DNA from: a virus
Strand: one strand, 5' to 3'
IMG/VR virus record: IMGVR_UViG_3300028007_000001
Coordinates: 14,685-78,684 of that record
DNA length: 64,000 bases
In this document: piece after piece, positions 5,351-20,026 of the stretch
Numbering within the stretch: position 1 is the first letter of the stretch
How the letters are laid out: each line of letters begins with the position of its first letter
Program-made: the position numbers and the translations under genes
The notes under the pieces: generated by a model
Told to the model about the DNA's origin: nothing
What the model saw: the letters and a program-made list of their open reading frames with translations, nothing else
Database searches by the model: none

Positions 5351-5409
5351 GCCCGAAGTTCGGTGGCTGCCCGGCAGAGCGGGAGAAACCTAGCACGTGA
5401 CCTGCGTAC

Positions 5410-5438
5410 TTGACAAATCAGAACGTTTCTGCTAAGGT
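5410..5438 (+). promoter_or_regulatory. promoter TTGACA-N17-TAAGGT, divergent from the amidoligase promoter
   Basis: Extended -10; ATG 6 nt downstream (leaderless). Confidence 0.8.
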
Positions 5439-5444
5439 TCACGC

Positions 5445-5597: not shown

Positions 5598-5746
5598 GCA
5601 AATGTCGTGACTGCGGCAAGCCCAAAGAGGTAGACGGCTACCGGCTCTGCGAAGAATGCTCCGAAGCCAGGTACGAGGCGCAGCGTGACTACCTGGCCGA
5701 CCAGGAGTTCGAACTCCGTCGTGAGCGACGGGTCTTCGGAGACTGA
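5594..5746 (+). CDS. small Zn-finger protein (CRDC...CEEC)
   Basis: GTG start overlapping previous stop, with GGAGG RBS. Confidence 0.6.
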   Translation: MSKCRDCGKPKEVDGYRLCEECSEARYEAQRDYLADQEFELRRERRVFGD

Positions 5747-5812
5747 GAACGATTCCTCACCCAAGATCTGAGCGGGGTAGCATTTCGTCGGAGCACCCTC
5801 CCGCCCAGTGCA

Positions 5813-5862
5813 AGCGGGGTCGGGACCAGGGAGTCGAATCCCTGGCATCCCGGCCCCGTTTC
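5813..5862 (+). terminator. long GC-rich hairpin, probable intrinsic terminator
   Basis: CGGGG..CGGGA.CCAGGGA/TCCCTGG..TCCCG.CCCCG followed by TTTC. Confidence 0.6.
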
Positions 5863-5876
5863 GCTATTCTCCGGCC

Positions 5877-6134
5877 ATGTCCGATCGGGCGATCTTCGGA
5901 GAGCATGTCTCGTCCCGAGAGTCCATTCCCTATTTCGGAAAGAATCGGGTCTGCTCTGCCGAAGGGTGCAACACGTCGCTGAGCCAATACAACCCCAGCG
6001 ACAGATGCTCTCTGCATCGACGCTCGACCCTGACTCGGGGCGTCAAACTTCGGTCAACTTCCGGTCAGGGTCGGTCTCGATCTACGAACAGATCAGCCCG
6101 AACCAAGACCAAGGATTCCAAGAAACGTACGTAG
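5877..6134 (+). CDS. small Cys/His (Zn-binding) basic protein
   Basis: CSAEGC...RCSLH; TATTCT -10 6 nt upstream of ATG 5877. Confidence 0.55.
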   Translation: MSDRAIFGEHVSSRESIPYFGKNRVCSAEGCNTSLSQYNPSDRCSLHRRSTLTRGVKLRSTSGQGRSRSTNRSARTKTKDSKKRT

Positions 6135-6254
6135 GTATCCGAAACCGAAAGTCCTGGTCAGAGGCTATTTCAGGTTTCGGAGTTTGACGAGAGTTCGACA
6201 GGTGGGGGTCCGTAGGTGCCTATCCTTGGGTGAACCGACCCAGGAGAGCCTGCG

Positions 6255-6902
6255 ATGCCGAAGGGCAAGACTCGATCCAGCCTGAGCCTTCGTGAGCGCC
6301 GAGAGCAGGCGTTCCGAATGTACGAGCAGGGCTACACGCCCACCGAGGTAGCCAAGGAACTCCGGGTGTCTCGGGCGACGGCCCACACGTACAAGAAGAA
6401 GTACGAAGAGTCGATCGAGGAAGAGGCTCGACTCCATCCCGGCCTCATGCGGGATGTGCTTGCCAACACGATCCGGAGCCTCCGGGAACTCGATCGCATC
6501 CGTGCTGACGCCTGGAAGCGGCTGAACGAGAAGAGGGTCCACAAGTACGTGGAGTGCCCGGACTGCGGATCTGACTTCGACGTGGTGGTTCGTGAGCCTG
6601 CGAGCGACCAGAGCCGGGTGCAGTATCACAACGTTCTGATCCGAGCGCAGGAGCAGAGGGCCAAACTCTTCGGCGTCCTGGGGGTGAAGCAGGAAGTCTT
6701 CGTGATGATCACCCAGGTCAAGTTGGTGCAAGACCGGATCCTCAACTTCTTGCAGAACAACCTCTGCCCTCACGATCGAGAGAACCTAGAACGTTTCCTT
6801 CTTTCGGATCCTGAGATCGTGGCCTACATGGCGAGTCCGGGATACATCGACGCCGAGGTCGTAGGCGAGATCGCTGCGGAATCCGAATTCGGATCTGAGT
6901 AG
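6255..6902 (+). CDS. terminase small subunit-like HTH protein with CPDC insertion
   Basis: N-terminal HTH (YTPTEVAKELRVSRATAHTY), helical core and RAKLFG motif typical of actinophage TerS. Confidence 0.65.
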   Translation: MPKGKTRSSLSLRERREQAFRMYEQGYTPTEVAKELRVSRATAHTYKKKYEESIEEEARLHPGLMRDVLANTIRSLRELDRIRADAWKRLNEKRVHKYVECPDCGSDFDVVVREPASDQSRVQYHNVLIRAQEQRAKLFGVLGVKQEVFVMITQVKLVQDRILNFLQNNLCPHDRENLERFLLSDPEIVAYMASPGYIDAEVVGEIAAESEFGSE

Positions 6903-6914
6903 TGGGGTAAAGAA

Positions 6915-6952
6915 GAGACCCCTCCCGAGGTCGTGGGTTCGGGAGGGGTCTC
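6915..6952. terminator. 14-bp stem hairpin between convergent genes
   Basis: GAGACCCCTCCCGA / TCGGGAGGGGTCTC perfect inverted repeat. Confidence 0.8.
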
Positions 6953-7046
6953 AGTGGTGGCGCCGTAGGAAGGTGGTGCGGAGAGGAAGGGGTACGCAAC
7001 CTCACTTCCACCTTCCTTGCCGAACAGCCCCGAGTGACACCTTACA

Positions 7047-7283
7047 TCAATCGAGCGCCGAGGGAAGACCCTCGCCAGGAATTTCGGATTCTTCCACCAT
7101 CCGACCGTAGTGGCGAGCGGCTCGCATCACTCGACGGCACAGCAGGACGAGCCAGAACGACCCCCACGCCACCGCCCCGAAGGTGTAGAGGGGATTGATC
7201 GAGAACGCCACCGCCAGGATGGCGATCCCCACGATCAGCCCGAAGACTGCTGCTACGCCCCCGGCTAGGGCTAGAACTCCCAT
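7047..7283 (-). CDS. small membrane protein (2 TM)
   Basis: Two hydrophobic segments; GGAG RBS. Confidence 0.65.
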   Translation of the reverse strand: MGVLALAGGVAAVFGLIVGIAILAVAFSINPLYTFGAVAWGSFWLVLLCRRVMRAARHYGRMVEESEIPGEGLPSALD

Positions 7284-7284
7284 G

Positions 7285-7584
7285 TCACGCTCCCGTTTCC
7301 TCCATCTGGGTCAGGAAGTCGCACAGGGCATCCACTTCCGCCTGCACGCACTCCTTGACTCGCTCTTCGGACTGTCGGAACCTGCGGGCGGCGTCGTACG
7401 TACTTTCGGAAGACGCCTCCCGGTTGGCCCTCACTCGATGTAGTTCCAACTGCGCTCTCGCCATCTCTTCGATGGCCTGAGACGTAGTGGTTCGGAGTTC
7501 CATCAACTGACGGGCGAACTGACCGCCCTCCGAGTCCAAGAACTCTTGGACGGACTGATCGAACTCGTCGTCTTCCTCGGGCAT
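7285..7584 (-). CDS. hypothetical coiled-coil protein
   Basis: ORF with GGAGG RBS; helical acidic sequence. Confidence 0.65.
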   Translation of the reverse strand: MPEEDDEFDQSVQEFLDSEGGQFARQLMELRTTTSQAIEEMARAQLELHRVRANREASSESTYDAARRFRQSEERVKECVQAEVDALCDFLTQMEETGA

Positions 7585-7622
7585 GGCAACCCCTCCCTGC
7601 GTAGTAGGTACGTAGGGAGAGG

Positions 7623-7889
7623 TTACCTGCGGGTGGTGGTCCGTCGTGAGGAACCCGAGCCGTTGTTCTGGGCCTGCTCTTCACGTACCTGACGGAGAAT
7701 CTGCGACACCCGGATTTCCGAAAGTCCGGAGATGTCTGCGATCTCACGGTAGGTCAGCCCGGCGTTGAATGCCTTGAGCATCCCCTTGAAGAACTTGCGG
7801 CGACTTCTCTCGGCTCTGGCCTCGTCTCGGCTTCGAACTGCGCTGAGTTCGGTGAGACGCTGCCGAGCGGTCTCCTTGCGGTTCGGCAT
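7623..7889 (-). CDS. HTH DNA-binding protein (sigma70-r4-like), candidate repressor/regulator
   Basis: AFNAGLTYREIADISGLSEIRVSQIL; start moved to the ATG with a GGAG RBS. Confidence 0.75.
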   Translation of the reverse strand: MPNRKETARQRLTELSAVRSRDEARAERSRRKFFKGMLKAFNAGLTYREIADISGLSEIRVSQILRQVREEQAQNNGSGSSRRTTTRR

Positions 7890-7982
7890 CTGCGTGCTCC
7901 CTGATTGGCTGCTCGTCTTCAGTTTCTCACATCTCGTCATCCGGATCCAGTTGAAAGTAGATCCGTAGAGAGGATGCTATGC

Positions 7983-8011
7983 ACCATACCAAACTATCGG
8001 AACTTTGTCAA
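7983..8011 (-). promoter_or_regulatory. leftward promoter TTGACA-N17-TATGGT
   Basis: Consensus hexamers on minus strand. Confidence 0.85.
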
Positions 8012-8098
8012 GCGAGACTTTCCGAAACCGATTTCCGAATTCGGATATGGGTACGGGCGGGAGCGCCAGGTCCGAGTTTCCGAATGTCCGATTGCCTC

Positions 8099-8127
8099 TT
8101 GACACACGGAGAACATTCCTATATAGT
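8099..8127 (+). promoter_or_regulatory. rightward promoter TTGACA-N17-TATAGT
   Basis: Near-perfect consensus; no credible ORF for ~460 nt downstream. Confidence 0.88.
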
Positions 8128-8133
8128 GAAGCC

Positions 8134-8570
8134 ACTTGCTAGCCACGCCCCACCGAACCCTCTCTACTCCACTCGGGAGGGGAAGCCGGGAACACCGGGG
8201 AAGGGTGGAACGAAGCAGATCCTCTAGGTATCCGTGGCTCACTGCCGACAGAGGTCGGTGCAAGGGAGAGAGGCGCTGGACTCAAAAGCAGTCCAGTCCT
8301 CTCTCCCAGCACCGGGAACGTCGTTCGGGCGACGTAAAACAGGGGTTAGGCCCGAAGCGGTATCCGAAAGGTTACGTCCCGAAAAACCGAACAAGGTGGC
8401 GTGGAGTGGGAGCGTCACCGAATCTCTGGCGGAATCCCACCCGGCAGAGAGAGAGTTCGGAAGCATCCTGCTAGGTCAGCCGGGCGGTCTAGCAGGTCAG
8501 GTTTATGTTCCGGCGAGGGAGTTGCCCGACCCCAGAAGAAAGGAGCGACGGCTCCATCGGGCACTCAAAA
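8134..8570 (+). ncRNA. candidate large structured RNA / leader of unknown class
   Basis: At least six hairpins and long-range complementarity (8153-8165 with 8448-8460; 8256-8314; 8318-8335; 8467-8496; 8518-8567) between the promoter and the first ATG at 8589. Confidence 0.55.
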
Positions 8571-8588
8571 TTCCGAAAGGGGTACGGT

Positions 8589-9491
8589 ATGACTCGCACG
8601 GACGTTCACGCTCCGAGCAACTTCGATCCTGCTGACTACGAGTACGTCACGTGGTTCTACAAGGGCGAGTGCCCGCAGTTGATTGAGGGCGAACTTCGAT
8701 TTTCGGATCGTCGTGAGCAGGCCGAGCGTCTGCTTTCCGAAAGTGCGTTCCGGGGCAACTACGCCAACCGAGGGAACTGCGATCACTGCGGCGCCTACTT
8801 CCTCTGGGTCACGGTGTGGCGTCACCGCCCGACCAACCAGCACATCGCTGTGGGCGAGATCTGCGCCTCCGAACGTTTCTCTCTGCCTAGCCGGGTGGCT
8901 TTCGAGTTGAAGTACGCCCGAGACCGGGTGGCCGAGGCTCGTCAGCGGGAGCGCCGCTACTCCGAAGTGGTGGAGTGGATGCAGAACGAGTGCCCCGACC
9001 TGATCCCGATCCTCAGTCGAGAGAACATCGAGGATCACCCTGCTTTCGGAAATTCGTTCGTTGCTGACGTTCGTCGGCGGCTGTGGCAGTACGGCCCGCC
9101 TCTGACCGAGCGGCAGGTTGCGGCTCTTCGGAGTGCGAAGCAACGCTCCGAGTCTGTCCAGCAGGAGCGTGAGGAAGAGACATACGTCCCTACGCCTCTT
9201 GGCCGCACGACGTTCGAAGGGGTCGTGGTCAAGACCGATACCAAGGAAAGCGACTACGGCATTCGGCACACGATGATCGTGAAGGTCGAGCAGGGCGAAG
9301 GCGTGTGGCTCTGCTACGTCACCATTCCGAACTCCATCCTTGGGGTGGGTCGTGGAGACCGTGTGCGTCTAACCGCCAAGATCGAGCGGGGTCGTGACGA
9401 ACATTTCGGATTCGGAAAGCGACCGACCCAAGCCGTGGTCGTGGCCCGAGCAGAAGAGGAACGAGCGGTTTCTGCTTCTGCACTTGACTAA
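8589..9491 (+). CDS. hypothetical protein with Zn finger and C-terminal OB-fold-like domain
   Basis: CDHCG...EIC; C-terminal FEGVVVKTD...GDRVRLTAKIER...GFGKRP beta-rich pattern. Confidence 0.6.
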   Translation: MTRTDVHAPSNFDPADYEYVTWFYKGECPQLIEGELRFSDRREQAERLLSESAFRGNYANRGNCDHCGAYFLWVTVWRHRPTNQHIAVGEICASERFSLPSRVAFELKYARDRVAEARQRERRYSEVVEWMQNECPDLIPILSRENIEDHPAFGNSFVADVRRRLWQYGPPLTERQVAALRSAKQRSESVQQEREEETYVPTPLGRTTFEGVVVKTDTKESDYGIRHTMIVKVEQGEGVWLCYVTIPNSILGVGRGDRVRLTAKIERGRDEHFGFGKRPTQAVVVARAEEERAVSASALD

Positions 9492-9512
9492 TCACAAACT
9501 TTGTGATATAGT
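9484..9512 (+). promoter_or_regulatory. promoter TTGACT-N17-TATAGT with TCACAAA-C-TTTGTGA palindrome in spacer
   Basis: Seen directly; a second -10 (TGc TATGGT) follows. Confidence 0.85.
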
Positions 9513-9540
9513 CTGCTATGGTCGTGAGAAAGGGGTACAC

Positions 9541-9894
9541 GTGAATCAGTACGAGGTTGGCGCCATCCTCCGGGTGAAGGCCAGGAGCGAGCAGGACGCT
9601 GTGGATACCGTTCATGGCGCCATCGACCGGGCCAGCCACCTTGACGACGGGACCGGACTTGTCGACGGTGTTGCGTACCGTCCGATTCCGGGTGCCAAGG
9701 TAATCGTGTTCCAGTGGAACACCGATCACGGCGAGTGCTACGAGTGCGGGCGCCCGGCTGCGTTCATGGTGGTCGACGCCGCCGCCCCTCGCCAGTACGA
9801 CCCGTCATACCCCTACAACCTTCGCTGTGCCTTGTGTGCTGCCAACAACGCAGCAGACGGCGAGACCATCCGACGAATCCGGGAGGAAGCATGA
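9541..9894 (+). CDS. hypothetical Zn-finger protein
   Basis: CYEC...CALC; AGGGGT RBS. Confidence 0.7.
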   Translation: MNQYEVGAILRVKARSEQDAVDTVHGAIDRASHLDDGTGLVDGVAYRPIPGAKVIVFQWNTDHGECYECGRPAAFMVVDAAAPRQYDPSYPYNLRCALCAANNAADGETIRRIREEA

Positions 9895-10199
9895 CCGTAG
9901 TGTCCAGACGAGACGGCGAACTGACGGTCGAAGGCGGCACGGTCGAAGAGATCATTCAGAAGATCGTCTTCGAAGAGGGGTGTTCAATCCTGATCACTCC
10001 CGTCACTCTCGCTGACGAGACCGTGACGATCTCGACCCGGATCTCGTACGGCGATCCCGAGCGGGACAACGTGGTCCGGGAAGCGTTCGACTATGCGGAG
10101 TGGGGCAACCATCCGGAGAGTTTCGAGCAGTCTCTCCGGTTCGCCGCTGGCAACCACTACGGAAGCCACGAAGACTTCGAAGACGACGAGGAAGGCTGA
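9891..10199 (+). CDS. hypothetical protein
   Basis: GGAGG RBS, start overlaps previous stop. Confidence 0.7.
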   Translation: MTVVSRRDGELTVEGGTVEEIIQKIVFEEGCSILITPVTLADETVTISTRISYGDPERDNVVREAFDYAEWGNHPESFEQSLRFAAGNHYGSHEDFEDDEEG

Positions 10200-10200
10200 C

Positions 10201-10524
10201 ATGGCGTACGGCTGGATCATCAACCGAGATCACCTGAGCCAGCAGAACAAGTCGATCATCGGCCCGTCCGAACTCGACGGCACCGACGAAGGTCACGATC
10301 TCATTGAGCGGCTGACCAACGGCGAGGGCGCCGAATTCCGAATCTACGACGACGACGGGTACCTCTACTACTCCGGTCGGTGCATCGTGGAGGGCGAGGA
10401 CGGGGTGACGTTCAGCGGCGGATCCGAAGAGTGGTTCGGGCCGCTGTGGGATTTCGGAGAACCGGGCGCCGGGGCAACCGAGATCCGATACAAGGACGAG
10501 CAGGGCGAGTGGAAGACGCTCTGA
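10201..10524 (+). CDS. hypothetical protein
   Basis: FRIYDDDGYLYYSG motif; RBS. Confidence 0.7.
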   Translation: MAYGWIINRDHLSQQNKSIIGPSELDGTDEGHDLIERLTNGEGAEFRIYDDDGYLYYSGRCIVEGEDGVTFSGGSEEWFGPLWDFGEPGAGATEIRYKDEQGEWKTL

Positions 10525-10537
10525 GGGAGGTCGTGAC

Positions 10538-10990
10538 GTGCAGATCTGGGGAGTGACCAAAGAGGAACTGGAATCCGTGATCCAGGACGTGGGCGACTTC
10601 TTCTACGGCGGAAACGTTCGCTTGGAGGGCTACGCCCCTCGCCCTGGGAACTCGGCCCTGTGGCACCTTCGTTACAACAAGCCTCGCAGCAAGGGCGGCA
10701 AGGGTGTTCGGATCGCTCGCAACGGCAAGACGGTTGGGTCGTGCTGGCACGTTCATCGAGACGTGATGGCCGAGATCTTCCGCCGCTTTCCGAATGCACG
10801 CATCAAGTCTGCTCTGGCAGACTACCGGAGCAAGGAGGACTTCGAACAGAAGTTTTCGGATACGTACGAGACGACGTACTACGGGATGGGTCCGTGGGGC
10901 ACGACAGAGGAATTCGGAAATTCGTGCCTCTGCTCCGAGGAAGGCCCACGGCCTGCGTTCCTTCCGCTCAACTACTCGGAGGTTGTGTGA
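10538..10990 (+). CDS. hypothetical protein
   Basis: GGAGG RBS; CWHVH motif. Confidence 0.7.
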   Translation: MQIWGVTKEELESVIQDVGDFFYGGNVRLEGYAPRPGNSALWHLRYNKPRSKGGKGVRIARNGKTVGSCWHVHRDVMAEIFRRFPNARIKSALADYRSKEDFEQKFSDTYETTYYGMGPWGTTEEFGNSCLCSEEGPRPAFLPLNYSEVV

Positions 10991-10991
10991 A

Positions 10992-11468
10992 GTGTCGCTG
11001 ATCGACAGCAACATGAAGATCTATTTGGCGAGGGCGTTCGCCATCGCCCACCACGGCGATCAGGTCGACAAGTGCGGGATGCCTTACGTCGGCCACCTGG
11101 AAAGGGTGGCGACCTTCGTTGAGGGGTGGCTCTCTCCTGGGTTCTCGACAGAGGTCGTTGTCGCTGCTTGGCTTCACGACGTGGTGGAGGACACCGACAC
11201 GACGGTCGGTGACGTAGAAGCGGCATTCGGAATGCGGGTCGGAGAACTGGTAGACCTGCTGACTCGGCGCCCCCATCCCGAAGAGACCCACGCCGAATAC
11301 ATCGAGAGGGTCTGTGCCGATCCCGACGCCGTAATCATCAAGATCGCTGACGTGTTGGACAACATGGATCCGAACCGCCGAAACTCCGAGGGCAACCGGC
11401 CCGACGAGTACGACGGGATGCTCACTCGCTACCACAAGGCGCTGGCTCGACTCGTTCGGGAACTCTGA
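10992..11468 (+). CDS. HD-domain hydrolase of the RelA/SpoT small alarmone hydrolase (Mesh1-like) type
   Basis: AHHGDQVDK...PYVGHL, AAWLHDVVEDT, V..LT, IKIADVLDN. Confidence 0.85.
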   Translation: MSLIDSNMKIYLARAFAIAHHGDQVDKCGMPYVGHLERVATFVEGWLSPGFSTEVVVAAWLHDVVEDTDTTVGDVEAAFGMRVGELVDLLTRRPHPEETHAEYIERVCADPDAVIIKIADVLDNMDPNRRNSEGNRPDEYDGMLTRYHKALARLVREL

Positions 11469-11487
11469 GTTTCGGAAAGGAAGACAC

Positions 11488-11718
11488 GTGAAGTTGGTCT
11501 ACCAGATCAAGTCCGGCGACCGGCTGACCAAGATCCTGCCAGGGATGGGCAATCCTCCCCAGCAGGTCTCGGTCAGCCTCACCGACCTTGTGGCCGGGAT
11601 TCTTTCGGATTCTCGACACGTGGCGACGGTCACGGTCCAACTCACGAACGGTGACGAGATCACCTACGCCCGCAACGAGGCGGGTGACAACGCAACCGAG
11701 AGGCTTCGGAACCGATGA
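11488..11718 (+). CDS. small hypothetical protein
   Basis: ORF with RBS in a tightly packed operon. Confidence 0.6.
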   Translation: MKLVYQIKSGDRLTKILPGMGNPPQQVSVSLTDLVAGILSDSRHVATVTVQLTNGDEITYARNEAGDNATERLRNR

Positions 11719-11885
11719 AGATGCTCTGCCCCTATCACCAGTACCAGTACGAGCAGGCGGCTTTCCTGTTCCAGTTCTCGGTGTTCCTTTTCGGAATCCA
11801 GAACACAGGCATGGCGGTAGCCAGTCTCGGGCAAGCCTTCTTCACCGCCGCAGACGCTCTCTCCTGTCACGGAATCGAGGGATGA
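11715..11885 (+). CDS. small hydrophobic protein (56 aa)
   Basis: Manual translation MKMLCPYHQYQYEQAAFLFQFSVFLFGIQ...; ATGA overlaps at both ends. Confidence 0.5.
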   Translation: MKMLCPYHQYQYEQAAFLFQFSVFLFGIQNTGMAVASLGQAFFTAADALSCHGIEG

Positions 11886-12178
11886 TGGAACAGTCCGACG
11901 TTCAGAAACTACGAGACGCCAAGGAGCAGGTCGCCCGAGCGAAGGCTGAGTTGGTCTCTGCCGTGAACAATCTGGCCTCGGTGATCAAGGACGTAGCACC
12001 TGCCAATGTCAAGATTCGGGTTCCCGAACTTTCGGAAATCCACACTCACTGGATTCCTTCGGCGGATACCTCGACCGCTTCGTCGGTCGGTACCTGCGGC
12101 CTCCACAATCACACCCCCGAGGAATACGGTCGTGAGCATGACGACACGACGGGCCTCCCGACAGATCGGCACCGATGA
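11882..12178 (+). CDS. hypothetical protein
   Basis: N-terminal coiled coil; ATGA overlap. Confidence 0.6.
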   Translation: MMEQSDVQKLRDAKEQVARAKAELVSAVNNLASVIKDVAPANVKIRVPELSEIHTHWIPSADTSTASSVGTCGLHNHTPEEYGREHDDTTGLPTDRHR

Positions 12179-12405
12179 TGTGGTGGCACGTGTATGCAGG
12201 CTCAATCCCTGGTGTCGGGGTCGTGACGGCCGTCAACAACTCTCTGACGCCTCCTGACGAGGCAGAAGAGTACGTCACGTTCCAGCAGTCAGTGCGGCTC
12301 GATCTCGTTCACTCGCTCGATCACAAGCCGTCTCCGGAAGAGTTGGTCGAGATCGTGGACGAGATGATGGAGAAGGCCAAGAACGGGTCTCCCGAGAACA
12401 ACTGA
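12175..12405 (+). CDS. hypothetical protein
   Basis: ATGA overlap, operon continuity. Confidence 0.6.
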   Translation: MMWWHVYAGSIPGVGVVTAVNNSLTPPDEAEEYVTFQQSVRLDLVHSLDHKPSPEELVEIVDEMMEKAKNGSPENN

Positions 12406-12423
12406 GAAATCGGGGTTTCGGAA

Positions 12424-12603
12424 ATGCGATGCGAGATCTGCGAGGACTCGACGGCCTGCCCTGACTGCGCCGGAACGGGAGAGTGCCAGGACTGCACCCC
12501 CGAAGACGACGACTGCGATATTTGCGCCGGGACTCATTCGTGTGTGGAGTGCGACGGCGACGGTGAGTGCCACTACTGCCGAGATTCGGAAAGAGAGGGG
12601 TAG
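12424..12603 (+). CDS. 59-aa acidic Cys-rich microprotein, DnaJ-type zinc finger-like
   Basis: Manual translation contains six CxxC (CEIC, CPDCAGTG, CQDC, CDIC, CVECDGDG, CHYC). Confidence 0.7.
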   Translation: MRCEICEDSTACPDCAGTGECQDCTPEDDDCDICAGTHSCVECDGDGECHYCRDSEREG

Positions 12604-12840
12604 GTGAAACCCATCGAGGTCTACTGCTCTGAGTGCGGGGCAGAACCAGGCAAGAAGTGCATCGACATGCGATACGCACGGAGGACCGGAACGTTCCCCA
12701 CTAACCGCCCGCACCGAATCCGAATCTTCTACGCCAACAACCCCGACAAGTGCGGGTGCTGCCCATTCCCCGGTGTATTCGATGATCCGCACGCCGATAA
12801 CTGCGCCTGTCACTACGAAGTTTCGGAAAGCGAGGGGTAG
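12604..12840 (+). CDS. small Cys/His-rich protein
   Basis: CSECGAEPGKKC...H..R; CGCC...CAC. Confidence 0.65.
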   Translation: MKPIEVYCSECGAEPGKKCIDMRYARRTGTFPTNRPHRIRIFYANNPDKCGCCPFPGVFDDPHADNCACHYEVSESEG

Positions 12841-12842
12841 CA

Positions 12843-13106
12843 ATGTACGGATGCAGATACTCAGACAACGACAGAGTGATGGAGCAACTGCGATCGACGG
12901 GGTATTCCGAACTGACCATACCCTTCTATCGTTTCTCCAAAGAGAGTGATGCCGTCAATGCCGCTCGCCAACGGGCCTATCGGTTGGCAAAGAAGATCGG
13001 GGTACGAGTTACGACAGCAGCAGGGTGGCATGTTTTGTACGTCTCGGTGCTGGACTCGAAACTACCCTCGCTAGCATCGAGGAAGCGTTCACGTCCTGAC
13101 TCGTAG
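12843..13106 (+). CDS. small basic hypothetical protein
   Basis: GAGGGGT RBS. Confidence 0.6.
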   Translation: MYGCRYSDNDRVMEQLRSTGYSELTIPFYRFSKESDAVNAARQRAYRLAKKIGVRVTTAAGWHVLYVSVLDSKLPSLASRKRSRPDS

Positions 13107-13419
13107 TACCGAATCCAACGTCAATAGATCCCCAAGTCAAACGAATTCAGAAAGATCGAGGGGTACAACACACCTACTATCTACATACCTACTCAGTACC
13201 GAGCGCCACGTCCCCGCATTCGCACCAGTTTCGAATCGCCAAATCCCGATACGCCATATCTATTCCCTCTTTCGGAAACTTCCATCCCATATCCGTGTCG
13301 TAGGTTTTGGTTCCGTTTCCCCTGGTCATGCCTTCCTCTCCCATTGCCGCCCCCATCCTCCGGTGGAGTAGAGAACCTCCATGCGTAGAGGAAAGAATGC
13401 ATAGGTATGTATAGGAATG

Positions 13420-13740
13420 TTGGGAATGTTCGGAAGCGTAGGGGATCTCGGGTAGAGGTACTGGGTAGTAGGGGGAAACCCCTCGTAGATTCGGAAAGAT
13501 CACATACGTAGGTACATATGGTTTCCGGAATTCGGATATCCGTGAGGCGTAGGCGTAGCCCCCGGATTCGGGGATTCGGATATGCGTAGTGCGTAGGCGT
13601 AGGTGGGATCTCCGAAAGCCCGAAGCGTAGAGCGCCCCCTCCTTTCCGAAAATCCGAATTCGGATACGGCCCGGCCTCGGTCAGCGATATCCGAATTCGG
13701 ATATAGGGAGGGGGTTGCACGGTATCCGAAAGCCCGATTG
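13420..13740. repeat. dense cluster of TCCGAA/TTCGGA and GCGTAG motifs
   Basis: About 11 TCCGAA/TTCGGA by eye, two TCCGAATTCGGA palindromes (13653, 13690), several GCGTAG. Confidence 0.85.
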
Positions 13741-13744
13741 CCCA

Positions 13745-13774
13745 TTGACAACCTTTCCCATAGTCTGCTATGGT
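13745..13774 (+). promoter_or_regulatory. promoter TTGACA-N18-TATGGT (extended -10)
   Basis: Shares ATAGT.TGCTATGGT with the promoters at 9484 and 14021. Confidence 0.8.
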
Positions 13775-13802
13775 AATGTTGCCATCGAGGAAGGGGTACG
13801 AC

Positions 13803-14024
13803 ATGCAAATCGCTGAGATTCAGGCCCAAGTGGAGATCGACCAACGTCACCATCCGGCTCCCCACGTTCCCTCTGGTCGTGTGATCGAGGTCGCCTGTCA
13901 GGGTGAGTACGTGATTGTCCGCACCAGAGGCACCACTCTCCTTCTCACCCCCAGCCAGGCCCGAGAGTTCGCTCGGGCACTCCGAAAGGCAGAACGCCAG
14001 GTTCGGAATGGAGAAACGGCTTGA
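13803..14024 (+). CDS. small hypothetical protein
   Basis: AAGGGGTAC RBS; LTPSQAREFARAL motif. Confidence 0.7.
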   Translation: MQIAEIQAQVEIDQRHHPAPHVPSGRVIEVACQGEYVIVRTRGTTLLLTPSQAREFARALRKAERQVRNGETA

Positions 14025-14049
14025 CAAACTTTCCATAGTGTGCTATGGT
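14021..14049 (+). promoter_or_regulatory. promoter TTGACA-N17-TATGGT (extended -10)
   Basis: Seen directly; AAACTTT follows the -35. Confidence 0.85.
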
Positions 14050-14080
14050 GAGTGAGTCAGCCAAACACAAGGGGTACGTC

Positions 14081-14452
14081 ATGCAGACATTCGAAGAGCG
14101 CATGGTGGAGGCACTGGAAAGCGGGGCACTGAAGCCCAGCCAGGTCGGCCTCACGGAGATCGAAGTCCGGTACTACGCCGATCCCACGGCTGAGGTACCC
14201 GAGGACAAGGAAGAGAACACGTGCGATCTCGTCGCCGTCACCTACACGGACGACGGCAAGCGCACGGCGCCGCACTGCGACAACGCCTACACCGACGACA
14301 AGAGCGACACGATCGAAGGTGTCGGCGGGGAGTACGCAACCACCGGAGATCGACGGGAGACCTTCTCCTACATCTCCGACGACAAGGACTTGGTAGCCCG
14401 AGTGGCAGCGATTCTGGACGGCCCAGCAATCAGCGCCATCATCGGGCAGTAG
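14081..14452 (+). CDS. acidic hypothetical protein
   Basis: AAGGGGTAC RBS. Confidence 0.7.
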   Translation: MQTFEERMVEALESGALKPSQVGLTEIEVRYYADPTAEVPEDKEENTCDLVAVTYTDDGKRTAPHCDNAYTDDKSDTIEGVGGEYATTGDRRETFSYISDDKDLVARVAAILDGPAISAIIGQ

Positions 14453-14479
14453 GACTGGCGTACCCCAACCCAGTAGGGA

Positions 14480-14815
14480 ATCCCCCGGTTTTCGGATCGG
14501 GGGATTCCCTTTTGCGTAGCAACGTATGGGAATTCGGAGTTTCGGAAATCGTAGGCGTAGCAGCGTAGCACCCCGGAAATCCGAAGGTCCGAAGCGTAGG
14601 TGTGGCCGGTCTCCGAGGATCCGAAACTCCGGCCTTGTGCATGTGATCACATTCACAAACTTTCCCCATACGTGCATACGTATGCAGGTTTCCGAATATC
14701 CGAATTCGGATATCGGCGGGCGCCGATCGGGCGAGTCCGAATTTCCGAAACTCCGGGCGCACGTGTGACTTTCGTCACATCGGGCAGAAAGTTTCCGAAT
14801 TCCATAGGAACCTAT
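14480..14815. repeat. second dense cluster of TCCGAA/TTCGGA motifs
   Basis: About 12 copies by eye, including ATATCCGAATTCGGATAT at 14696-14713. Confidence 0.85.
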
Positions 14816-14870
14816 GCTACGATGGCGCCGCAGGCGCCGAACGGCGGCGCCCAAGCGATAGGGGTACGCA

Positions 14871-15728
14871 ATGGCACGCACGATCGGTATGGAAATTGAG
14901 ACCGGATGCGATGACTGGGCGCCCGTTGTCGGTGGCATCCGTTCTCGTGGCGTCTACCTGGAAACGACCGACAACTACGCCACTGGCGAACGGGTCGACC
15001 AGTGGACGGCAAAGCCTGACGGGTCGGTCGATGGGATGGAAATCGTTTCTCCACCCTTCGAATTCGCTTCGCCATTCTGGCGTGACGAACTCCGGAAGGT
15101 TTGCGAAGGCGCCCGCTCGGGCGGCGCCCGCCCGCACTCTTCGGCCGGTATCCATGTCCACGTGGACGTCTCCGACCTTCCCGCCCGGAACGTGGCGAGT
15201 ATCGTCAAGTTCGTCCACAAGTTCGAAGACTTCCTGTACCGGATCGCTTCGGCAGGATGGCAAACGATCCGATCGGGCGCCGCTACCTACGCCAAGCCGA
15301 TTCACCCGAACCTCGCCCATGCCATGTACCGGGTACGTTCGGCGGGCGACCTTGAGCGGGCATGGTCGGGCGTCGACCGATACCACGCCGTGAACCTTCA
15401 CTCGTACTTCTTCCGGGGAACGGTGGAGTTTCGGATTTTCAACTCATCGTTGAATCCGGATCGCATCGCATCCTTCGTGGCGTTGTGTCACGGCATCGTT
15501 GAGGATGCAACTCGCCACTCCCGTTCGCTTTCGTCCGTCTATCCGGTCGGAGGAATGGCGTCCGGTGCTACGGACGAACGGGCGCTACTGCTTCGTCTCC
15601 AACAAATCCTCACATGCTATGACCGCGACACTTCGGCGCCCATGCTTCACGCTGACTGGCAAACCCTCCGCCGCACGTGCTGGCAAGAGTCTCGCCCGCA
15701 GGTCGCCGAATCACTCGCCCGGTGGTAA
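14871..15728 (+). CDS. putative amidoligase (COOH-NH2 ligase), copy 2
   Basis: IGMEIE, DGSV, EIVSPP, SAGIHVHV, YHAVNLHSYFFRGTVEFRIFNSS. Confidence 0.88.
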   Translation: MARTIGMEIETGCDDWAPVVGGIRSRGVYLETTDNYATGERVDQWTAKPDGSVDGMEIVSPPFEFASPFWRDELRKVCEGARSGGARPHSSAGIHVHVDVSDLPARNVASIVKFVHKFEDFLYRIASAGWQTIRSGAATYAKPIHPNLAHAMYRVRSAGDLERAWSGVDRYHAVNLHSYFFRGTVEFRIFNSSLNPDRIASFVALCHGIVEDATRHSRSLSSVYPVGGMASGATDERALLLRLQQILTCYDRDTSAPMLHADWQTLRRTCWQESRPQVAESLARW

Positions 15729-15798
15729 CGGGCGCACAACTCCCCGGCGCCCGTCATACGGGCGGGCGCCCATCCTTCGAACAGAAAGGTTTCTGACA

Positions 15799-16620
15799 AT
15801 GTGCAGACTCTTCGGCATGTACCTTCCGAAGCAGGAACGGATTCCTGCTAACGAGATCGCTGCCATGCTGGCATACCGTCTAACGGACCTAGGTCCGGAC
15901 GCCTACGGTGTCGCCACGTGGCAAGGCGGAAACGCAAAGGTTCGGCATTCAAACTACGTCGGCCGTGCTGACTCGCCCGCCGGTATCTGTACCATCCTGT
16001 CCACGGTGCCACGCCATGCACGGTGGGTTATCGGTCATACCCGGTACGCCACGCATGGGGATCCGGAGCACGCCTACAACAATCACCCGATTCGTCACGG
16101 CCGAATCATCGGCGCCCACAATGGCGTTATCTGGAACTACGCCGACATTCTCCGGGTGACTGGGCGCCACGATCGGCGGGCGGAAGTGGATTCCGAAGCA
16201 ATCTTCGCACTCGCCCACAAGTTCGGCGCCGACAACGTGGAAGAACTTTCCGAACTTTGCGGGAGCATCGCTGCTACGTATGTCGACATTCGGCGCCCGT
16301 CCACGTTGTATCTGCTTCGTGGTGCGGACTCGCCACTCATTGTCGGGCGAACGGAGAACGGCGGACTCATTTGGGCGAGCGAGCGCCAGGCACTCCACTC
16401 GCTTCGCCCGCTCGTGACCTACGTGGAAACAGTCGACATGCCAGAGGATCGGCTATACGTGGTGCGTGACGGGCGCATCGTGCAACGCCTGGACGTTCCT
16501 TTCTGGCATCCTCGCCCGGTTGTTCCTGCCAAGAAGAAGGGAGGAAAGTCAAAGGGTGCCACTACCCCCGGCGCCCAGCACAAGGCTAGCAAGCGTGGCG
16601 AGATCATTTTCGGAAAGTGA
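15799..16620 (+). CDS. class II (Ntn) glutamine amidotransferase, copy 2
   Basis: True start MCRLFG at 15799 (AGAAAGG RBS), GHTRYATHG, HNGVI, VDSE. Confidence 0.9.
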   Translation: MCRLFGMYLPKQERIPANEIAAMLAYRLTDLGPDAYGVATWQGGNAKVRHSNYVGRADSPAGICTILSTVPRHARWVIGHTRYATHGDPEHAYNNHPIRHGRIIGAHNGVIWNYADILRVTGRHDRRAEVDSEAIFALAHKFGADNVEELSELCGSIAATYVDIRRPSTLYLLRGADSPLIVGRTENGGLIWASERQALHSLRPLVTYVETVDMPEDRLYVVRDGRIVQRLDVPFWHPRPVVPAKKKGGKSKGATTPGAQHKASKRGEIIFGK

Positions 16621-17139
16621 CGCCACGCACCTAACCTGACTTTCGGATTCGGGCGCCTACGGGCGCCCGTTTCCATTGCATGGGCACGAATCCGAATTCG
16701 GATATTGGGATATAGACCTATGTGAAGTTTCCGAATATCCGAAAAGGAAAGCAGGTCGTCGTTTTTTGAGGTTGCGGTTGGAGGCTCAGGTAACCATACA
16801 GAGTTCGTTCAACATAAGTAGAATGTTTCTCTTTCCTATATAGAGGTATGTGATTCGTGATGCGTGGTTCGTGATGCGTGAACCAAGGAGGGGCCGAGGC
16901 GCAGATACATACAATATGATTCCAATATACATGTATCGGAAAGTTTCTGAAAAACGGCGAGCACTGCGTGCTGAGAGAAGTCTTCGTCCAGCAACGGGGG
17001 ACGTTCTTCCGGCTCGTTTTCCTGGCTCGTTCGAACGTCCGTCTGGTGAGGGGTACTGCGATCGGATTTCTTGTCGGGGGTCGGCTCCGGTGTCGTATCA
17101 ATAGACGTGAGCCAAATGCGGACTGACAAGGAGAGCGGG

Positions 17140-17250
17140 ATGGACGGGAAAGAGTTCGGTACGGCGGTGTCGGCGTTGATGATCTTCTGTGCCGTGGCGG
17201 GTGCGTTGATCGGCGCTGGGACCGTGGTCGTCGTGTGGATGGCGATGTGA
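17140..17250 (+). CDS. small membrane protein (36 aa)
   Basis: Manual translation MDGKEFGTAVSALMIFCAVAGALIGAGTVVVVWMAM; GGAG RBS. Confidence 0.5.
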   Translation: MDGKEFGTAVSALMIFCAVAGALIGAGTVVVVWMAM

Positions 17251-17414
17251 TGAACGGCGTGGTGCGGTTTCTGCTGACGTTGGCAGCCATGACGGCCATC
17301 GACTACGGGATGTTCGGCCTGGAGCCGACTGTGGGGCGTCTGCGCCGGTACTGCGCCGTGGGAGGCATTCTCTGCCTCGCCATCGTGATCTCGTCTGAGT
17401 ACGGGTCTTCGTGA
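17250..17414 (+). CDS. small membrane protein (54 aa)
   Basis: Manual translation, two hydrophobic stretches, overlapping starts/stops. Confidence 0.45.
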   Translation: MNGVVRFLLTLAAMTAIDYGMFGLEPTVGRLRRYCAVGGILCLAIVISSEYGSS

Positions 17415-17776
17415 TGGCGAGGGCAATTCTGCTGTCGCCCCCGGAACGCTTCTTGCTCGATCAGTGGGCACGAACTCTCAGGGAGACCTTTGGGCAGCCG
17501 TATCTGGTCGGGTCTGTCGTGCGTACTCAAACCGAACGCAGGTATCGGGATGTGGACGTTCGGATTCTTCTGGAACGAGAGGCATGGCTGTCTCTGGTGT
17601 GGTGTGTCGACACTCTGAACGCTGCCATCTCCATCTGGGGTCAGAAGGCAACGGGACTGCCGATCGACTTCCAGTTCCAGAGGGCGATCAGGGCGCCCAA
17701 CGGGATTCGCATTCCTATCGGAATCATTCCTGACCGAAGAGAAGAAAGGGAGTCGGATGCCGAACTACAAGAGTGA
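17411..17776 (+). CDS. minimal nucleotidyltransferase (Pol-beta superfamily)
   Basis: PYLVGSV...RDVDVRILL (GS..DxD) and LPIDFQF third acidic residue. Confidence 0.75.
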   Translation: MMARAILLSPPERFLLDQWARTLRETFGQPYLVGSVVRTQTERRYRDVDVRILLEREAWLSLVWCVDTLNAAISIWGQKATGLPIDFQFQRAIRAPNGIRIPIGIIPDRREERESDAELQE

Positions 17777-18014
17777 TCTGGTCATGGGGGAAAAGTACCG
17801 TGACGCAACGACCGGACTGGAGGGCACTCTCGTCTCCGTCCACTTCTACGAGCACGCCTGCGAGCGAGCCACGCTTCGGTGGGTCAACGGGAATCGGGAA
17901 GTGGTCGAAGCGTCCTTCGATGCTCCCGAACTGATTCGGATCGAGACGGGTCGTGCGGCCCGTACGTCGAGGCCGGGTGGCCCTCGACGTTCCGAAGGCG
18001 GAAGGAACCAATGA
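17757..18014 (+). CDS. hypothetical protein
   Basis: AGGGAG RBS; GEKYRDATTGLEG SH3-like pattern. Confidence 0.65.
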   Translation: MPNYKSDLVMGEKYRDATTGLEGTLVSVHFYEHACERATLRWVNGNREVVEASFDAPELIRIETGRAARTSRPGGPRRSEGGRNQ

Positions 18015-18205
18015 GACTCTGCGAGAACTGCCTCATGTTCGGGGACGTACGAGAGACCCCGGTCGGGTACGCCAGCGGGTCACAGCGTGATCCTGTGCAG
18101 GCGAGGCTGGAACTGTGCGTGACCTGCCGAGACGCTCTGGTTTCGGGAGAACTCGGAACGTTTTCAGGAAGGTACACGTCAGAGCGCAACATCAAGCGCC
18201 CCTGA
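18011..18205 (+). CDS. small Zn-finger protein
   Basis: CENC...CVTC. Confidence 0.6.
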   Translation: MRLCENCLMFGDVRETPVGYASGSQRDPVQARLELCVTCRDALVSGELGTFSGRYTSERNIKRP

Positions 18206-18220
18206 TCGAAAGGAAGAGCC

Positions 18221-18427
18221 ATGCCCACGTCGAACACGCTCTTGGACGGAGAGAGCGTCTTGAGGGTCGAGTTGCAGCGGCTTCGGACTACTTACTCCAC
18301 GATCGTTCAGGAGATCGACTCTGTGAAGAGTGAGTTCGTGCGCCTCCAAGAGCAGAAGGGCGTGCTGGAGTCGAGCATCGCCAACTTGGAGCGTGATATC
18401 GAGCGTCTCAAGGAACAATCGCAATGA
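18221..18427 (+). CDS. small coiled-coil protein
   Basis: Heptad Leu pattern. Confidence 0.65.
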   Translation: MPTSNTLLDGESVLRVELQRLRTTYSTIVQEIDSVKSEFVRLQEQKGVLESSIANLERDIERLKEQSQ

Positions 18428-18573
18428 TTCTGGTGGGGGTGTGCCTCGGGGTGTCGACGTTGTGTGCTGTCGCCGCCATCTTCTACTTCTTCGATGGCGA
18501 CAAGGGATCTGCCATGATCTCGTCGTACGTGGGTGCGTCGTGGCTCATGGTGGCGCTGGGAGTGAAGCGATGA
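18424..18573 (+). CDS. small membrane protein (49 aa)
   Basis: Manual translation, two TM segments. Confidence 0.5.
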   Translation: MILVGVCLGVSTLCAVAAIFYFFDGDKGSAMISSYVGASWLMVALGVKR

Positions 18574-19019
18574 CGATGAACGGAAGTCTTCTGAAGCCGG
18601 AACTGGTGATGGTCTCGATGGGGCCTCTGCATCTCATGGCGGCGACCAACTCCACCTTTGGCGAGATGCTCCCCCAGGGAGACTGGCTTCGCCTCGACGT
18701 GAACACCGGAGTCCACCATCTTCCGCAGATGTACCGGGAGACGGAAGTGGTTCCGTTCGACACTGTGCGTCTGGAAGACCACGGCTTCTGCCACGAATGC
18801 AGCGGGTTCGGGCTGACGAGGCTCTTCGCCATGTTCACCGTCGACACCGCCCTCGACGGCCAGCACGGCACTGTCTGCACCACGTGCAACGGCACCGGGC
18901 GCCCCGGAGTCAGGATCGAGACGGTTCGGTTCGGGGGCAAGACCGAAATCCGAATGAAGTGGAAGGAGCGCCTGAAGGTGCTCCCCTGCCATGACTGCGC
19001 CTCGTCGTTCGGCGGCTGA
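18570..19019 (+). CDS. hypothetical protein with DnaJ-like CxxCxGxG motifs
   Basis: CHECSGFG, CTTCNGTG. Confidence 0.6.
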   Translation: MTMNGSLLKPELVMVSMGPLHLMAATNSTFGEMLPQGDWLRLDVNTGVHHLPQMYRETEVVPFDTVRLEDHGFCHECSGFGLTRLFAMFTVDTALDGQHGTVCTTCNGTGRPGVRIETVRFGGKTEIRMKWKERLKVLPCHDCASSFGG

Positions 19020-19311
19020 CGTGGACTGGCTCGACCAGGCCGTCTGCAAGGGCAGAACGAGACTCTTCTTTGCGCCTCCTGGCGAGGGCACGGTGATGAA
19101 GCGTCTCCGTGAAGACGCCGCTCGGAAAGTTTGCCAAACGTGTCCGGTGATGTTGACGTGCCGACAGCACGCACGAGACCACCAGGAGTACGGCTTCTGG
19201 GGAGGCGAGTCTGAGGACGAGCGGGCGCTGAACGGCTACCTGTCTTGGCAGGCGTTCACAGGCACGAAGCGTCGGAAGATGAAGAAGATCCTCCAAGGAG
19301 CCGAATCGTGA
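18991..19311 (+). CDS. whiB: WhiB-family Fe-S transcription factor
   Basis: WLDQAVC...LFF...ARKVCQTCPVMLTC...GFWGG. Confidence 0.92.
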   Translation: MTAPRRSAADVDWLDQAVCKGRTRLFFAPPGEGTVMKRLREDAARKVCQTCPVMLTCRQHARDHQEYGFWGGESEDERALNGYLSWQAFTGTKRRKMKKILQGAES

Positions 19312-19835
19312 GCGGAGAGACAACCCTGGTTGTGGCATACCTATGTATGTTGGTGATTCTTCCCATAGCCGGGTATGCAGTGGCGGTGTACCGCAGGAGA
19401 AAGTTTCGAAAGAAGATCCTCTCCGCAGGACGGATGATCGTCAACTCTGGACTGAGGCTTGCCTTTGCTGGTATCGGCGCCGCTGCCATCAAGGCGGCTC
19501 AGGAATTCGAAGAGGCTCTTGTGCGAGTCAGTAGGGAGTTGAGCGCCAAGCCCAGAGTCTTTCTGATTGCGTGCAACCACTTTGAGTTCTACGCCTGGTG
19601 CAGACATGTGGATCTCAACCCCAACGATGTGACGTGCCTGATCACGATGGAGCACGCCTTCCGGTACCAGTTCACACACATGGACGAGTTTTGGGAAACG
19701 CACCGGGCGTGGTTCCACAACCCCGACTACCACGACATCGTTGACAGAATCCGAATGTTCTCTCCTGACGCCAAGATCCATCGAAGGTTGGACGAGCGTG
19801 TCGAGGTCGAGGGTCCGCTGAAGGAGTTGTGGTGA
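19308..19835 (+). CDS. membrane-anchored hypothetical protein
   Basis: N-terminal TM followed by basic RRRKFRKK; GGAG RBS. Confidence 0.6.
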   Translation: MSGETTLVVAYLCMLVILPIAGYAVAVYRRRKFRKKILSAGRMIVNSGLRLAFAGIGAAAIKAAQEFEEALVRVSRELSAKPRVFLIACNHFEFYAWCRHVDLNPNDVTCLITMEHAFRYQFTHMDEFWETHRAWFHNPDYHDIVDRIRMFSPDAKIHRRLDERVEVEGPLKELW

Positions 19836-20026
19836 ACGACGACGAGAGAGTGACCATCACGCTTTCTGTTCATCCGGGCGACATCCCCCGGATGAAGAAG
19901 TCGCTGGAGGCGTCAGCCCAAAAGGCGTTCGTCTACTACGCCAAGGGTCAGAAGCAGCGGTGGCTGAGCATCGCTACTCGATTCACCGACTACGTTCGTC
20001 AACTTTCCGATCAGGAGAGGTCGTGA
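19829..20026 (+). CDS. small hypothetical protein
   Basis: Operon continuity, RBS. Confidence 0.55.
   Translation: MVNDDERVTITLSVHPGDIPRMKKSLEASAQKAFVYYAKGQKQRWLSIATRFTDYVRQLSDQERS

Follow-up and report, generated by a model that had tools for sequence, protein, structure and literature searches.

Iyer, Abhiman, Burroughs and Aravind are said to have predicted in 2009 (Mol Biosyst 5:1636) that phage cassettes combining Amidoligase_2 with a class-II glutamine amidotransferase (GATase), and further with GGCT, ATP-grasp and COOH-NH2_lig members, amidate or glutamylate peptides. Such a set was later named a 'putative peptidoglycan modification module' (PMC3890496, PMC11945000). The literature searched contained no experiment behind the prediction of cell-wall amidation or glutamylation and no PF12224 protein that had been characterised experimentally; few phage enzyme sets known from prediction only are as widespread as the amidoligase-GATase module. 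Here we describe an amidoligase gene and a GATase gene (AL2 and GAT2, together pair 2) at 14871-16620 of a 64,000-nucleotide window, which comprises bases 14685-78684 of the 81,346-bp virus record IMGVR_UViG_3300028007_000001 of an uncultured soil phage. The genome carries another such pair (AL1 and GAT1, pair 1) at 3229-5281. Pair 2 is probably an intact, self-contained two-gene cassette of an old side lineage, likely a movable accessory unit, which would carry out glutamine-dependent amidation with a timing or an acceptor that differs from that of pair 1.

The cassettes described in phiEco32, in LUZ24/PaP3/tf/UFV-P2-like Pseudomonas phages and in Bacillus and Arthrobacter phages have the same core enzyme pair, on one strand, in an early or accessory region. 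In those cassettes and in pair 2 alike, the catalytic residues are intact and the function is predicted. Pair 2 differs from the cassettes of Iyer and colleagues in having no GGCT or GGACT (gamma-glutamylamine cyclotransferase) in its cluster, the single GGACT of the genome being next to pair 1. It also coexists with a canonical second pair, an arrangement that we did not find described. PF14395 (COOH-NH2_lig) gave no match in the genome, though the control gave no match either.

AL2 (14871-15728, forward strand, 285 aa) is assigned by its profile match, invariant columns and structural model to Amidoligase_2, as a carboxylate-amine ligase of glutamine-synthetase fold. It scored 78.8 bits against PF12224 (cut-off 22; E 7.6e-22) and also matched phrog_2443 (E 5.4e-26). 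All 41 columns that are invariant among 24 family members are retained, including E8/E10, D50-G-S52, H95-V-H97 and E186-F-R188, and the motifs GxExE, DGS, GxE-VSPP, GIHVH, FED..YR and TxEFRxFNSS are present. The AlphaFold2 model has a predicted local distance difference test score (pLDDT) of 91.2 and a predicted template modelling (pTM) score of 0.91. Its top Foldseek matches in the Protein Data Bank (PDB) were all YbdK, glutamine synthetases, Dop, GmaS or GCL, with probabilities of 0.9-1.0 and template modelling (TM) scores of just 0.4-0.5, and no solved-structure relative of AL2 detectable by sequence was found. The fold of AL2 as modelled is a glutamine-synthetase-like catalytic fold.

GAT2 (15799-16620, forward strand, 273 aa) was identified by profiles, alignment and model as a short-form class-II, N-terminal nucleophile (Ntn), glutamine amidotransferase or gamma-glutamyl amidohydrolase. 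Its reading frame is open from 15499. The ATG at 15799 begins the sequence Met-Cys-Arg-Leu-Phe-Gly, with TGC as the next codon, has GAAAGG as a ribosome-binding site 9 nt upstream, and the Met-Cys start falls at the same column in 30 of 40 aligned homologues; therefore it is the real start, and Cys2 occupies the nucleophile position. The public gene call (P0027, 267 aa) begins at Met7, the second Met, and loses the catalytic Cys (region 15799-15817); automated annotation can conceal the nucleophile of such Ntn enzymes. GAT2 matched GATase_6 (E 1.8e-18), GATase_4 and GATase_7. Aligned with the glutaminase domain of GlmS it retains the motifs HTRYATHG, HNG and VDSE, and the equivalents of GlmS Arg73/Thr76/His77, Asn98-Gly99 and Asp123 are invariant in the 40-sequence alignment. 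The best Foldseek match of its AlphaFold2 model (pLDDT 90.3) was 1xff, the GlmS glutaminase domain (E 8.6e-16, TMt 0.75), followed by PurF, AsnS and EgtC, and the model gives GAT2 the four-layer Ntn fold. The ExE, DGS, HVH and EFR motifs and the N-terminal Cys reported in the preliminary description of this DNA, which had called the pair intact, are thus all present, and structure prediction of both proteins gave confident models with the expected folds. A complex prediction for AL2 and GAT2 scored 0.00 without controls and was used neither for nor against the pairing.

AL2 and GAT2 lie on the same strand, 70 nt apart, in one unit between two terminators, and the ribosome-binding sites of the unit are good. 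The preceding unit of small genes (open reading frame (ORF) at 14045-14452) ends in an intrinsic terminator at 14475-14516 (forward strand; inverted repeat I8), a 16-bp perfect hairpin with UUUUGCG that folds at -38.1 kcal/mol (z -4.6; none of 200 shuffles folds as well). Because this strong terminator closes the preceding unit, pair 2 needs its own promoter. A sigma-70 scan found no consensus promoter in the pair-2 unit between its two terminators. The candidate promoter region is 14652-14686 (forward strand), where alignment with the phage promoters at 13745 and 14021 points to a degenerate early promoter consisting of TTCACA and a AAACTTTCC spacer, which overlaps TACGTATGCA (14677-14686), one mismatch from TACGTA(G/T)GTA. 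The gap between the two genes contains a GC-rich 10-bp hairpin at 15746-15770 (forward strand) with GGCGCC-type repeats and no U-run; the segment 15726-15805 folds at -30.8 kcal/mol (z -2.0). After GAT2 there is a terminator-like hairpin at 16650-16675 (forward strand) with 8 G-C pairs and UUUCC (-27.4 kcal/mol, z -4.4, 0 of 200 shuffles). An Rfam search of 12800-17500 gave three weak matches, far below gathering scores, and no known riboswitch or small RNA.

The element TACGTA(G/T)GTA has 24 matches with at most one mismatch against 0.74 expected, an approximately 30-fold excess. Its sites include 6128, 13505, 25347, 26774, 31781, 37464 and 50852, in addition to one-mismatch copies. Most are in gaps before structural or late genes, and the element may serve as a promoter or a processing signal specific to this phage.

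Pair 1 is this phage's copy of a conserved four-gene module, all of which is on the reverse strand. AL1 (4349-5281, 310 aa) is the canonical amidoligase (PF12224 E 3.8e-27) and is 60% identical to P0006/P0009, its orthologues from related phages and its nearest relatives. GAT1 (3229-4329, 366 aa) is a long-form class-II GATase with a basic linker and the C-terminal motif of the family, MMWIGDMLVTREEYEDF. A conserved protein of about 300 aa (2209-3141) belongs to this module only and has homologues at the same place in the contigs L001, L003 and L007, and the GGACT, or gamma-glutamyl(amine) cyclotransferase (1769-2212; PF06094 E 2.3e-8), is the sole match in the genome. A near-consensus sigma-70 promoter, TTGACA-17-TATTCT with a TG extension, is found at 5322-5350 on the reverse strand. 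The promoter and terminator analysis agrees with the earlier view that pair 2 has the opposite orientation and belongs to a separate transcription unit. Besides pair 1, the four-gene module was found in L001/L002, L003/L004 and L007 and in the related genomes G001 and G002. On long contigs, a homologue of AL2 was always accompanied in such a module by a GATase (308-402 aa), a protein of 269-340 aa and a GGACT. L001 and L007 have the GGACT adjacent and on the same strand, and their modules adjoin the SNF2 helicase and replication genes; in L003 the GGACT lies on the other strand, some 1.3 kb upstream. In total the genome studied here has two genes for amidoligases, two for GATases and a single one for a GGACT; the last adjoins pair 1 and is 12.7 kb away from pair 2.

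Compared with the four-gene module of the group, pair 2 has the same protein subfamilies and is nested in the clade of the module in both trees, but it consists of just two genes, is located in a variable region and evolves faster. Its ligase is without two loops, an 8-aa EAKNEDGT-type insertion and one of about 20 aa, both of which are present in the AL1 group. Its GATase has a disordered, basic tail that comes soon after the catalytic domain and terminates in the motif RGEIIF; it keeps this RGE-hydrophobic-F motif and is without the C-terminal aromatic/TxEEY motif, which about 30 of 40 GATase relatives have, GAT1 among them. A stripped-down, fast-evolving and compositionally distinct second lineage beside a canonical module is what is new in this genome.

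The paralogy of the two pairs, which had been noticed before, is far beyond chance: AL2 and AL1 share 44% identity (E 1e-82), GAT2 and GAT1 share 40% (E 6e-54), and in both pairs the order is ligase, then GATase. Together with the complete set of catalytic residues, and with the avoidance of AGCT and CGCG in both pairs as in the rest of the genome, this would suit pair 2 as a recent in-genome duplicate that provides redundancy or more dosage of the pair-1 reaction. We consider such a duplication very unlikely. The identities between the pairs are just 44% and 40%, whereas in the amidoligase tree the neighbours of AL1 are orthologues in other phages, P0006 being 60% identical to it. AL2 groups with P0002 (support 100/99) on a long stem, within a clade that also contains AL1, and the GATase tree is congruent, with GAT2 and P0028 together (99) on a long stem beside the GAT1 group. 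Monophyly of the two amidoligases is disfavoured, since constraining AL1, AL2 and P0002 as one clade changed the log-likelihood by -9.3 (approximately unbiased (AU) test, p 0.026), and pair 2 has its own orthologues elsewhere. Pair 2 also differs from pair 1 in loop deletions, a truncated tail, other promoter elements and another oligonucleotide signature. The profile searches confirmed the families to which the preliminary description had assigned both pairs, whereas its term 'duplicated', taken as duplication within this genome, is not supported by the phylogeny, which favours a separate lineage.

P0002 and P0028 are encoded on one 7.4-kb soil contig as GATase (264 aa), an 89-aa ORF and amidoligase. 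Small genes and long gaps surround the pair, and no GGACT was among the genes called. AL2 and P0002 are 48-51% identical and have all catalytic columns in common; they share the lineage-specific motif TCYDRDTSAPM.HADW, and both are without the two loops of the AL1 group. Since the catalytic columns and lineage motifs are shared at only 51% identity, the AL2 lineage has probably been under purifying selection. This bears on whether pair 2 could be a decaying, functionless remnant, as its long branches (tip 0.83 and stem 0.8-0.95, against a median tip of 0.22), the absence of two ligase loops and of the C-terminal motif of the GATase, and the failure to find a consensus promoter might indicate. 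Both frames are open, however, AL2 and the orthologue that is 51% identical to it both retain the invariant catalytic columns, and the pair has confident, native-like models, good ribosome-binding sites and its own terminator, so that we regard decay as highly improbable. Judged by its sequence, pair 2 is an old, fast-evolving and separately evolving lineage that is still constrained, and no fresh duplicate of pair 1. A third locus of the pair-2 type was not found in metagenome and genome contigs, where the best matches had 32% identity (gut Firmicutes and others). Against deposited phages all identities of pair 2 were below 32%, viral contigs queried with AL2 alone gave no match, and a DNA search found no close relatives of the phage.

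The relatives G001 (89.8 kb, 88% complete) and G002 (74.3 kb, 92% complete) are syntenic with this phage over the replication and structural genes, with 35-77% protein identity, and each has one pair, at the position of pair 1. The window from about 9.5 to 22.4 kb has no counterpart in G001 or G002 beyond the match of pair 2 to their single pair. Pair 2 sits in a phage-specific variable region and not beside the SNF2 helicase. Paired copies, had they been routine in this phage family, would have counted against the preliminary description, but they are not: 9 of 10 other amidoligase-bearing virus records (G001, G002 and seven more) have one amidoligase, and two diverged pairs are thus not routine. 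The exception is IMGVR_UViG_3300001567_000262 (G006; L021 and L028), a 133-kb 'provirus' with two amidoligases 70 kb apart. It was rejected as a precedent for two diverged pairs because it is not comparable, being 64% complete and with copies that share only a 1.6-kb segment of 90% nucleotide identity. It may represent two related elements in one host contig, or a recent duplication of the amidoligase segment.

Two repeat blocks in direct orientation flank pair 2. The left block (14688-14749, forward strand) contains the 17-mer GTTTCCGAATATCCGAA, the palindrome ATCCGAATTCGGAT (14698-14711) and TCCGAA half-sites, and the right block (16690-16743, forward strand) contains the palindrome (16690-16703) and the 17-mer (16727-16743). 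The two blocks align, and the exact 17-mer was found only at 14688 and 16727. The palindrome has 8 matches against 0.21 expected. Located in a variable region, between direct repeat blocks and two terminators, the cassette was most likely acquired, or else retained, as a movable unit. In T4-like phages, gene cassettes of hyperplastic regions are flanked by Promoter-early stem-loops (PeSL). By analogy, pair 2 would be an accessory unit between direct regulatory repeats that could mediate recombinational exchange. Unlike PeSL, the repeats of pair 2 are an operator-like palindrome with TCCGAA half-sites, the phage is a probable actinophage, and the mobility is putative. Pair 2 is no assembly artefact, because a second soil run holds the same contiguous sequence across both of its ends; in that run all bins were covered at 100% identity, with pieces bridging both ends. 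The identical phage sequence is present in several soil metagenome runs, in one of which, the likely source run, a single contig covers window positions 1-20000.

The operator-like palindrome ATCCGAATTCGGAT or TCCGAATTCGGA is found at 6881, 8033, 13652, 13689, 14698, 16690 and 52310, and once outside the window. With TCCGAA half-sites it forms composite non-coding blocks between small gene cassettes in the early or variable region, and helix-turn-helix (HTH) proteins are encoded near these blocks.

The sequence composition of pair 2 is unusual in its oligonucleotides more than in its codons. The preliminary description stated that the codon style of the two pairs differs. This is true only weakly, with a small shift in G+C at third codon positions (0.68-0.71 in pair 2 and 0.71-0.77 in pair 1) and in the codon adaptation index (0.66-0.70 and 0.71-0.75), all within the genome range, and the strong form of the statement does not stand. 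The oligonucleotide signature is truly different: the pair-2 segment is the strongest tetranucleotide outlier of the genome (+3.9 to +4.9 standard deviations). GGCGCC is enriched about 10-fold in the cassette (14719-16662), which has 18 of the 87 genome sites within 1.95 kb. Each pair-2 gene contains 5, spread over all three frames, whereas synonymous shuffling predicts about 1, and none of 2000 shuffles reached 5. In G001, G002, L001, L003, L007 and L011 the word is almost absent (0-0.05 per kb). The excess may be a donor signature, protein-binding sites or RNA hairpins. GGCGCC is also mildly enriched at 9559-11266, and the related words CGGGCG and GGGCGC are enriched too. AGCT does not occur in the 81-kb genome, and CGCG occurs once, at 15624-15627 within AL2 (Arg252-Asp253). 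G001 has 332 AGCT and 375 CGCG, and G002 has no AGCT and 524 CGCG; different palindromes have been purged in each phage of the group, presumably tracking host restriction systems.

Several observations weigh against an acquired, movable amidation cassette of separate descent. The contig of P0002 and P0028 has the reversed gene order and an ORF between the two genes, which weakens the case for a single fixed mobile unit. The AU rejection is marginal and involves long branches. The shared avoidance of AGCT and CGCG means that the cassette, or the donor phage, has long been under the same restriction pressure; it excludes a recent acquisition, and the acquisition itself we infer. A search among runs of any kind found no RNA run that holds the sequence, the six holders being soil-metagenome DNA. 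The evidence also fits ammonia delivery and gamma-glutamyl hydrolysis by the Ntn enzyme alike.

Chemically, AL2 and GAT2 likely perform ATP- and glutamine-dependent amide ligation, as their conserved residues and models suggest. In the scheme that we propose, AL2 would spend ATP on turning a carboxylate of the glutamate type into an acyl phosphate, which would then be joined to an amine, and GAT2 would split glutamine with its N-terminal Cys and supply ammonia for the ligation by AL2. Overall, a carboxylate on a host envelope peptide, or on a protein, would be amidated at the expense of glutamine, in line with the 2009 prediction, which later genome papers have taken up again. Gene integrity, folds, catalytic residues, phylogeny, context, repeats and composition are observed, and from them we infer ammonia transfer, substrate, timing and mode of acquisition.

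Asparagine synthetase B, LtsA (an Ntn GATase fused to a synthetase) and MurT/GatD follow the same logic, in which ammonia from a glutaminase serves an ATP-dependent activation of a carboxylate, and GAT2 shares the fold and active-site residues of Ntn glutaminase domains. MurT/GatD amidates iso-glutamate in peptidoglycan (PMC3267633). Unlike these systems, AL2 has the glutamine-synthetase/GCS2 fold and not that of a PP-loop or Mur ligase protein, and the two activities are on separate polypeptides. Closer in the fold of the ligase are EgtA/EgtC of ergothioneine synthesis, PuuA/PuuD, the GmaS pathways and PafA/Dop, since AL2 resembles YbdK, glutamine synthetase, GmaS and Dop, and GAT2 resembles EgtC. 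The association of the phage family with GGACT fits the gamma-glutamyl chemistry of EgtA/EgtC-type pairs. Pair 2 differs from these in having no sequence-level membership of them and in its phage context.

This likeness leads to another possible chemistry, namely addition and removal of gamma-glutamyl groups: AL2 would couple glutamate, through its gamma-carboxyl, to an amine acceptor such as a polyamine, another small amine or the side chain of lysine, the Ntn enzyme would act as an EgtC-like hydrolase of gamma-glutamyl amides instead of supplying ammonia, and GGACT would be a second remover in module 1. We hold it to be the main alternative, though a rather unlikely one. Glutamine synthetase, GmaS, PuuA, GCL and PafA ligate the gamma-carboxyl of glutamate to amines, and every top structural match of AL2 (YbdK, glutamine synthetase, GmaS, GCL and Dop) activates this carboxyl. 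The known substrates of GGACT are gamma-glutamyl amines, and a GGACT is carried by the family module. The fold of GAT2 is nearly as close to stand-alone EgtC as to GlmS (TMt 0.71-0.75), and adjacency of the two genes is dispensable, as the orthologous contig has a gap of 845 nt and an extra ORF between them. However, GAT2 has the full set of glutamine-site residues (which EgtC-type enzymes keep too), a two-subunit amidotransferase would account equally well for the almost invariable linkage of the two genes in phages, and pair 2 operates without any GGACT.

The targets of the pairs might also be DNA bases (hypermodification) rather than peptides. Lee et al. (2021) reported co-association of amidoligase and amidotransferase genes with thymidine-hypermodification genes in viral contigs (PMC8989533). 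Module 1 lies among genes of replication and nucleotide metabolism (SNF2 helicase, DnaB, primase and dCTP deaminase, with ThyX, DNMK and NUDIX in relatives), and both GATases, GAT1 and GAT2, have lysine-rich tails. On the other hand, the 81-kb genome has no match to PF18723 (5-hmdU DNA kinase), PF18724 (ADDT) or PF00303 (ThyA-type hydroxymethylase), with the aGPT-Pplase families outside the search. The purge of AGCT and CGCG suggests that the DNA is exposed to restriction and has no shield of bulk modification, and pair 2 is among small early or accessory genes and not among nucleotide-metabolism genes. A role in DNA modification is therefore, in our estimate, scarcely probable.

Returning to glutamine-dependent amidation, the two pairs differ in cis-elements, GGACT, partner protein and tail motif, and as far as can be read from the DNA these differences allow different timing or function, and with it the two targets or two time points proposed in the preliminary description. 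In place of the near-consensus sigma-70 promoter of pair 1, pair 2 has a degenerate -35 box, the one-mismatch copy of TACGTA(G/T)GTA and the operator-like palindrome. Having no GGACT, partner protein, C-terminal GATase motif or the two ligase loops, and having different cis-elements, pair 2 would therefore differ from pair 1 in when it acts or in its acceptor, and would act without a dedicated eraser. In most of the nearest single-copy GATases, the linker motif A.RRGE-hydrophobic-FP and the C-terminal aromatic/TxEEY motif are in one protein. In this genome the intact linker motif is in GAT2 only, GAT1 having the degenerate ARNGELGSG, and the C-terminal motif is in GAT1 only. We tentatively suggest, as something more doubtful than the cassette itself, that the pairs have divided an ancestral job, GAT2 having kept the linker motif and GAT1 the C-terminal motif, and pair 2 having given up the GGACT eraser, two ligase loops and the consensus early promoter. 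If this were true, pair 2 would be a neo- or sub-functionalised, irreversible 'writer' for a different acceptor or infection stage, the cassette would move between phages by recombination at the repeated operator blocks, and the GGCGCC excess would be a functional DNA or RNA signal and not a donor signature.

Pair 2 leaves the kind of system unchanged, and its value is as an experimental entry point. The four-gene and the minimal two-gene version in one genome form a natural comparison of which parts (GGACT, partner protein, GATase tail and ligase loops) are needed for each reaction and of whether the minimal pair is sufficient to modify a host target. Their divergence should also make the pairs orthogonal enough to compare ligase and glutaminase by cross-complementation.

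The virus record has 59% G+C, linear ends and a CheckV completeness of 95%. The phage encodes a DnaE-type polymerase, RecA, DnaB, primase, dCTP deaminase, an SNF2 helicase and a WhiB-type regulator. The WhiB-family gene (18991-19311, forward strand, E 7.6e-16) is in the variable region of pair 2, as is a gene for an HD_4 protein resembling RelA/SpoT-type hydrolases (10794-11468, forward strand), and the WhiB gene suggests that the host is actinobacterial.

The protein of about 300 aa encoded at 2209-3141 in module 1 had no Pfam or PHROG match. A zincin-like or DinB-like identity was considered and rejected, as the Atlas TM score of about 0.5 and the mean model pLDDT of 0.58 are too weak. Its invariant residues across relatives are H4, L5, P26, F41, Y49, R96, H98, W115, SLFY, P125 and FR. 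The protein contains an acidic linker, and a C-terminal motif resembling helix-extended-helix occurs in some members.

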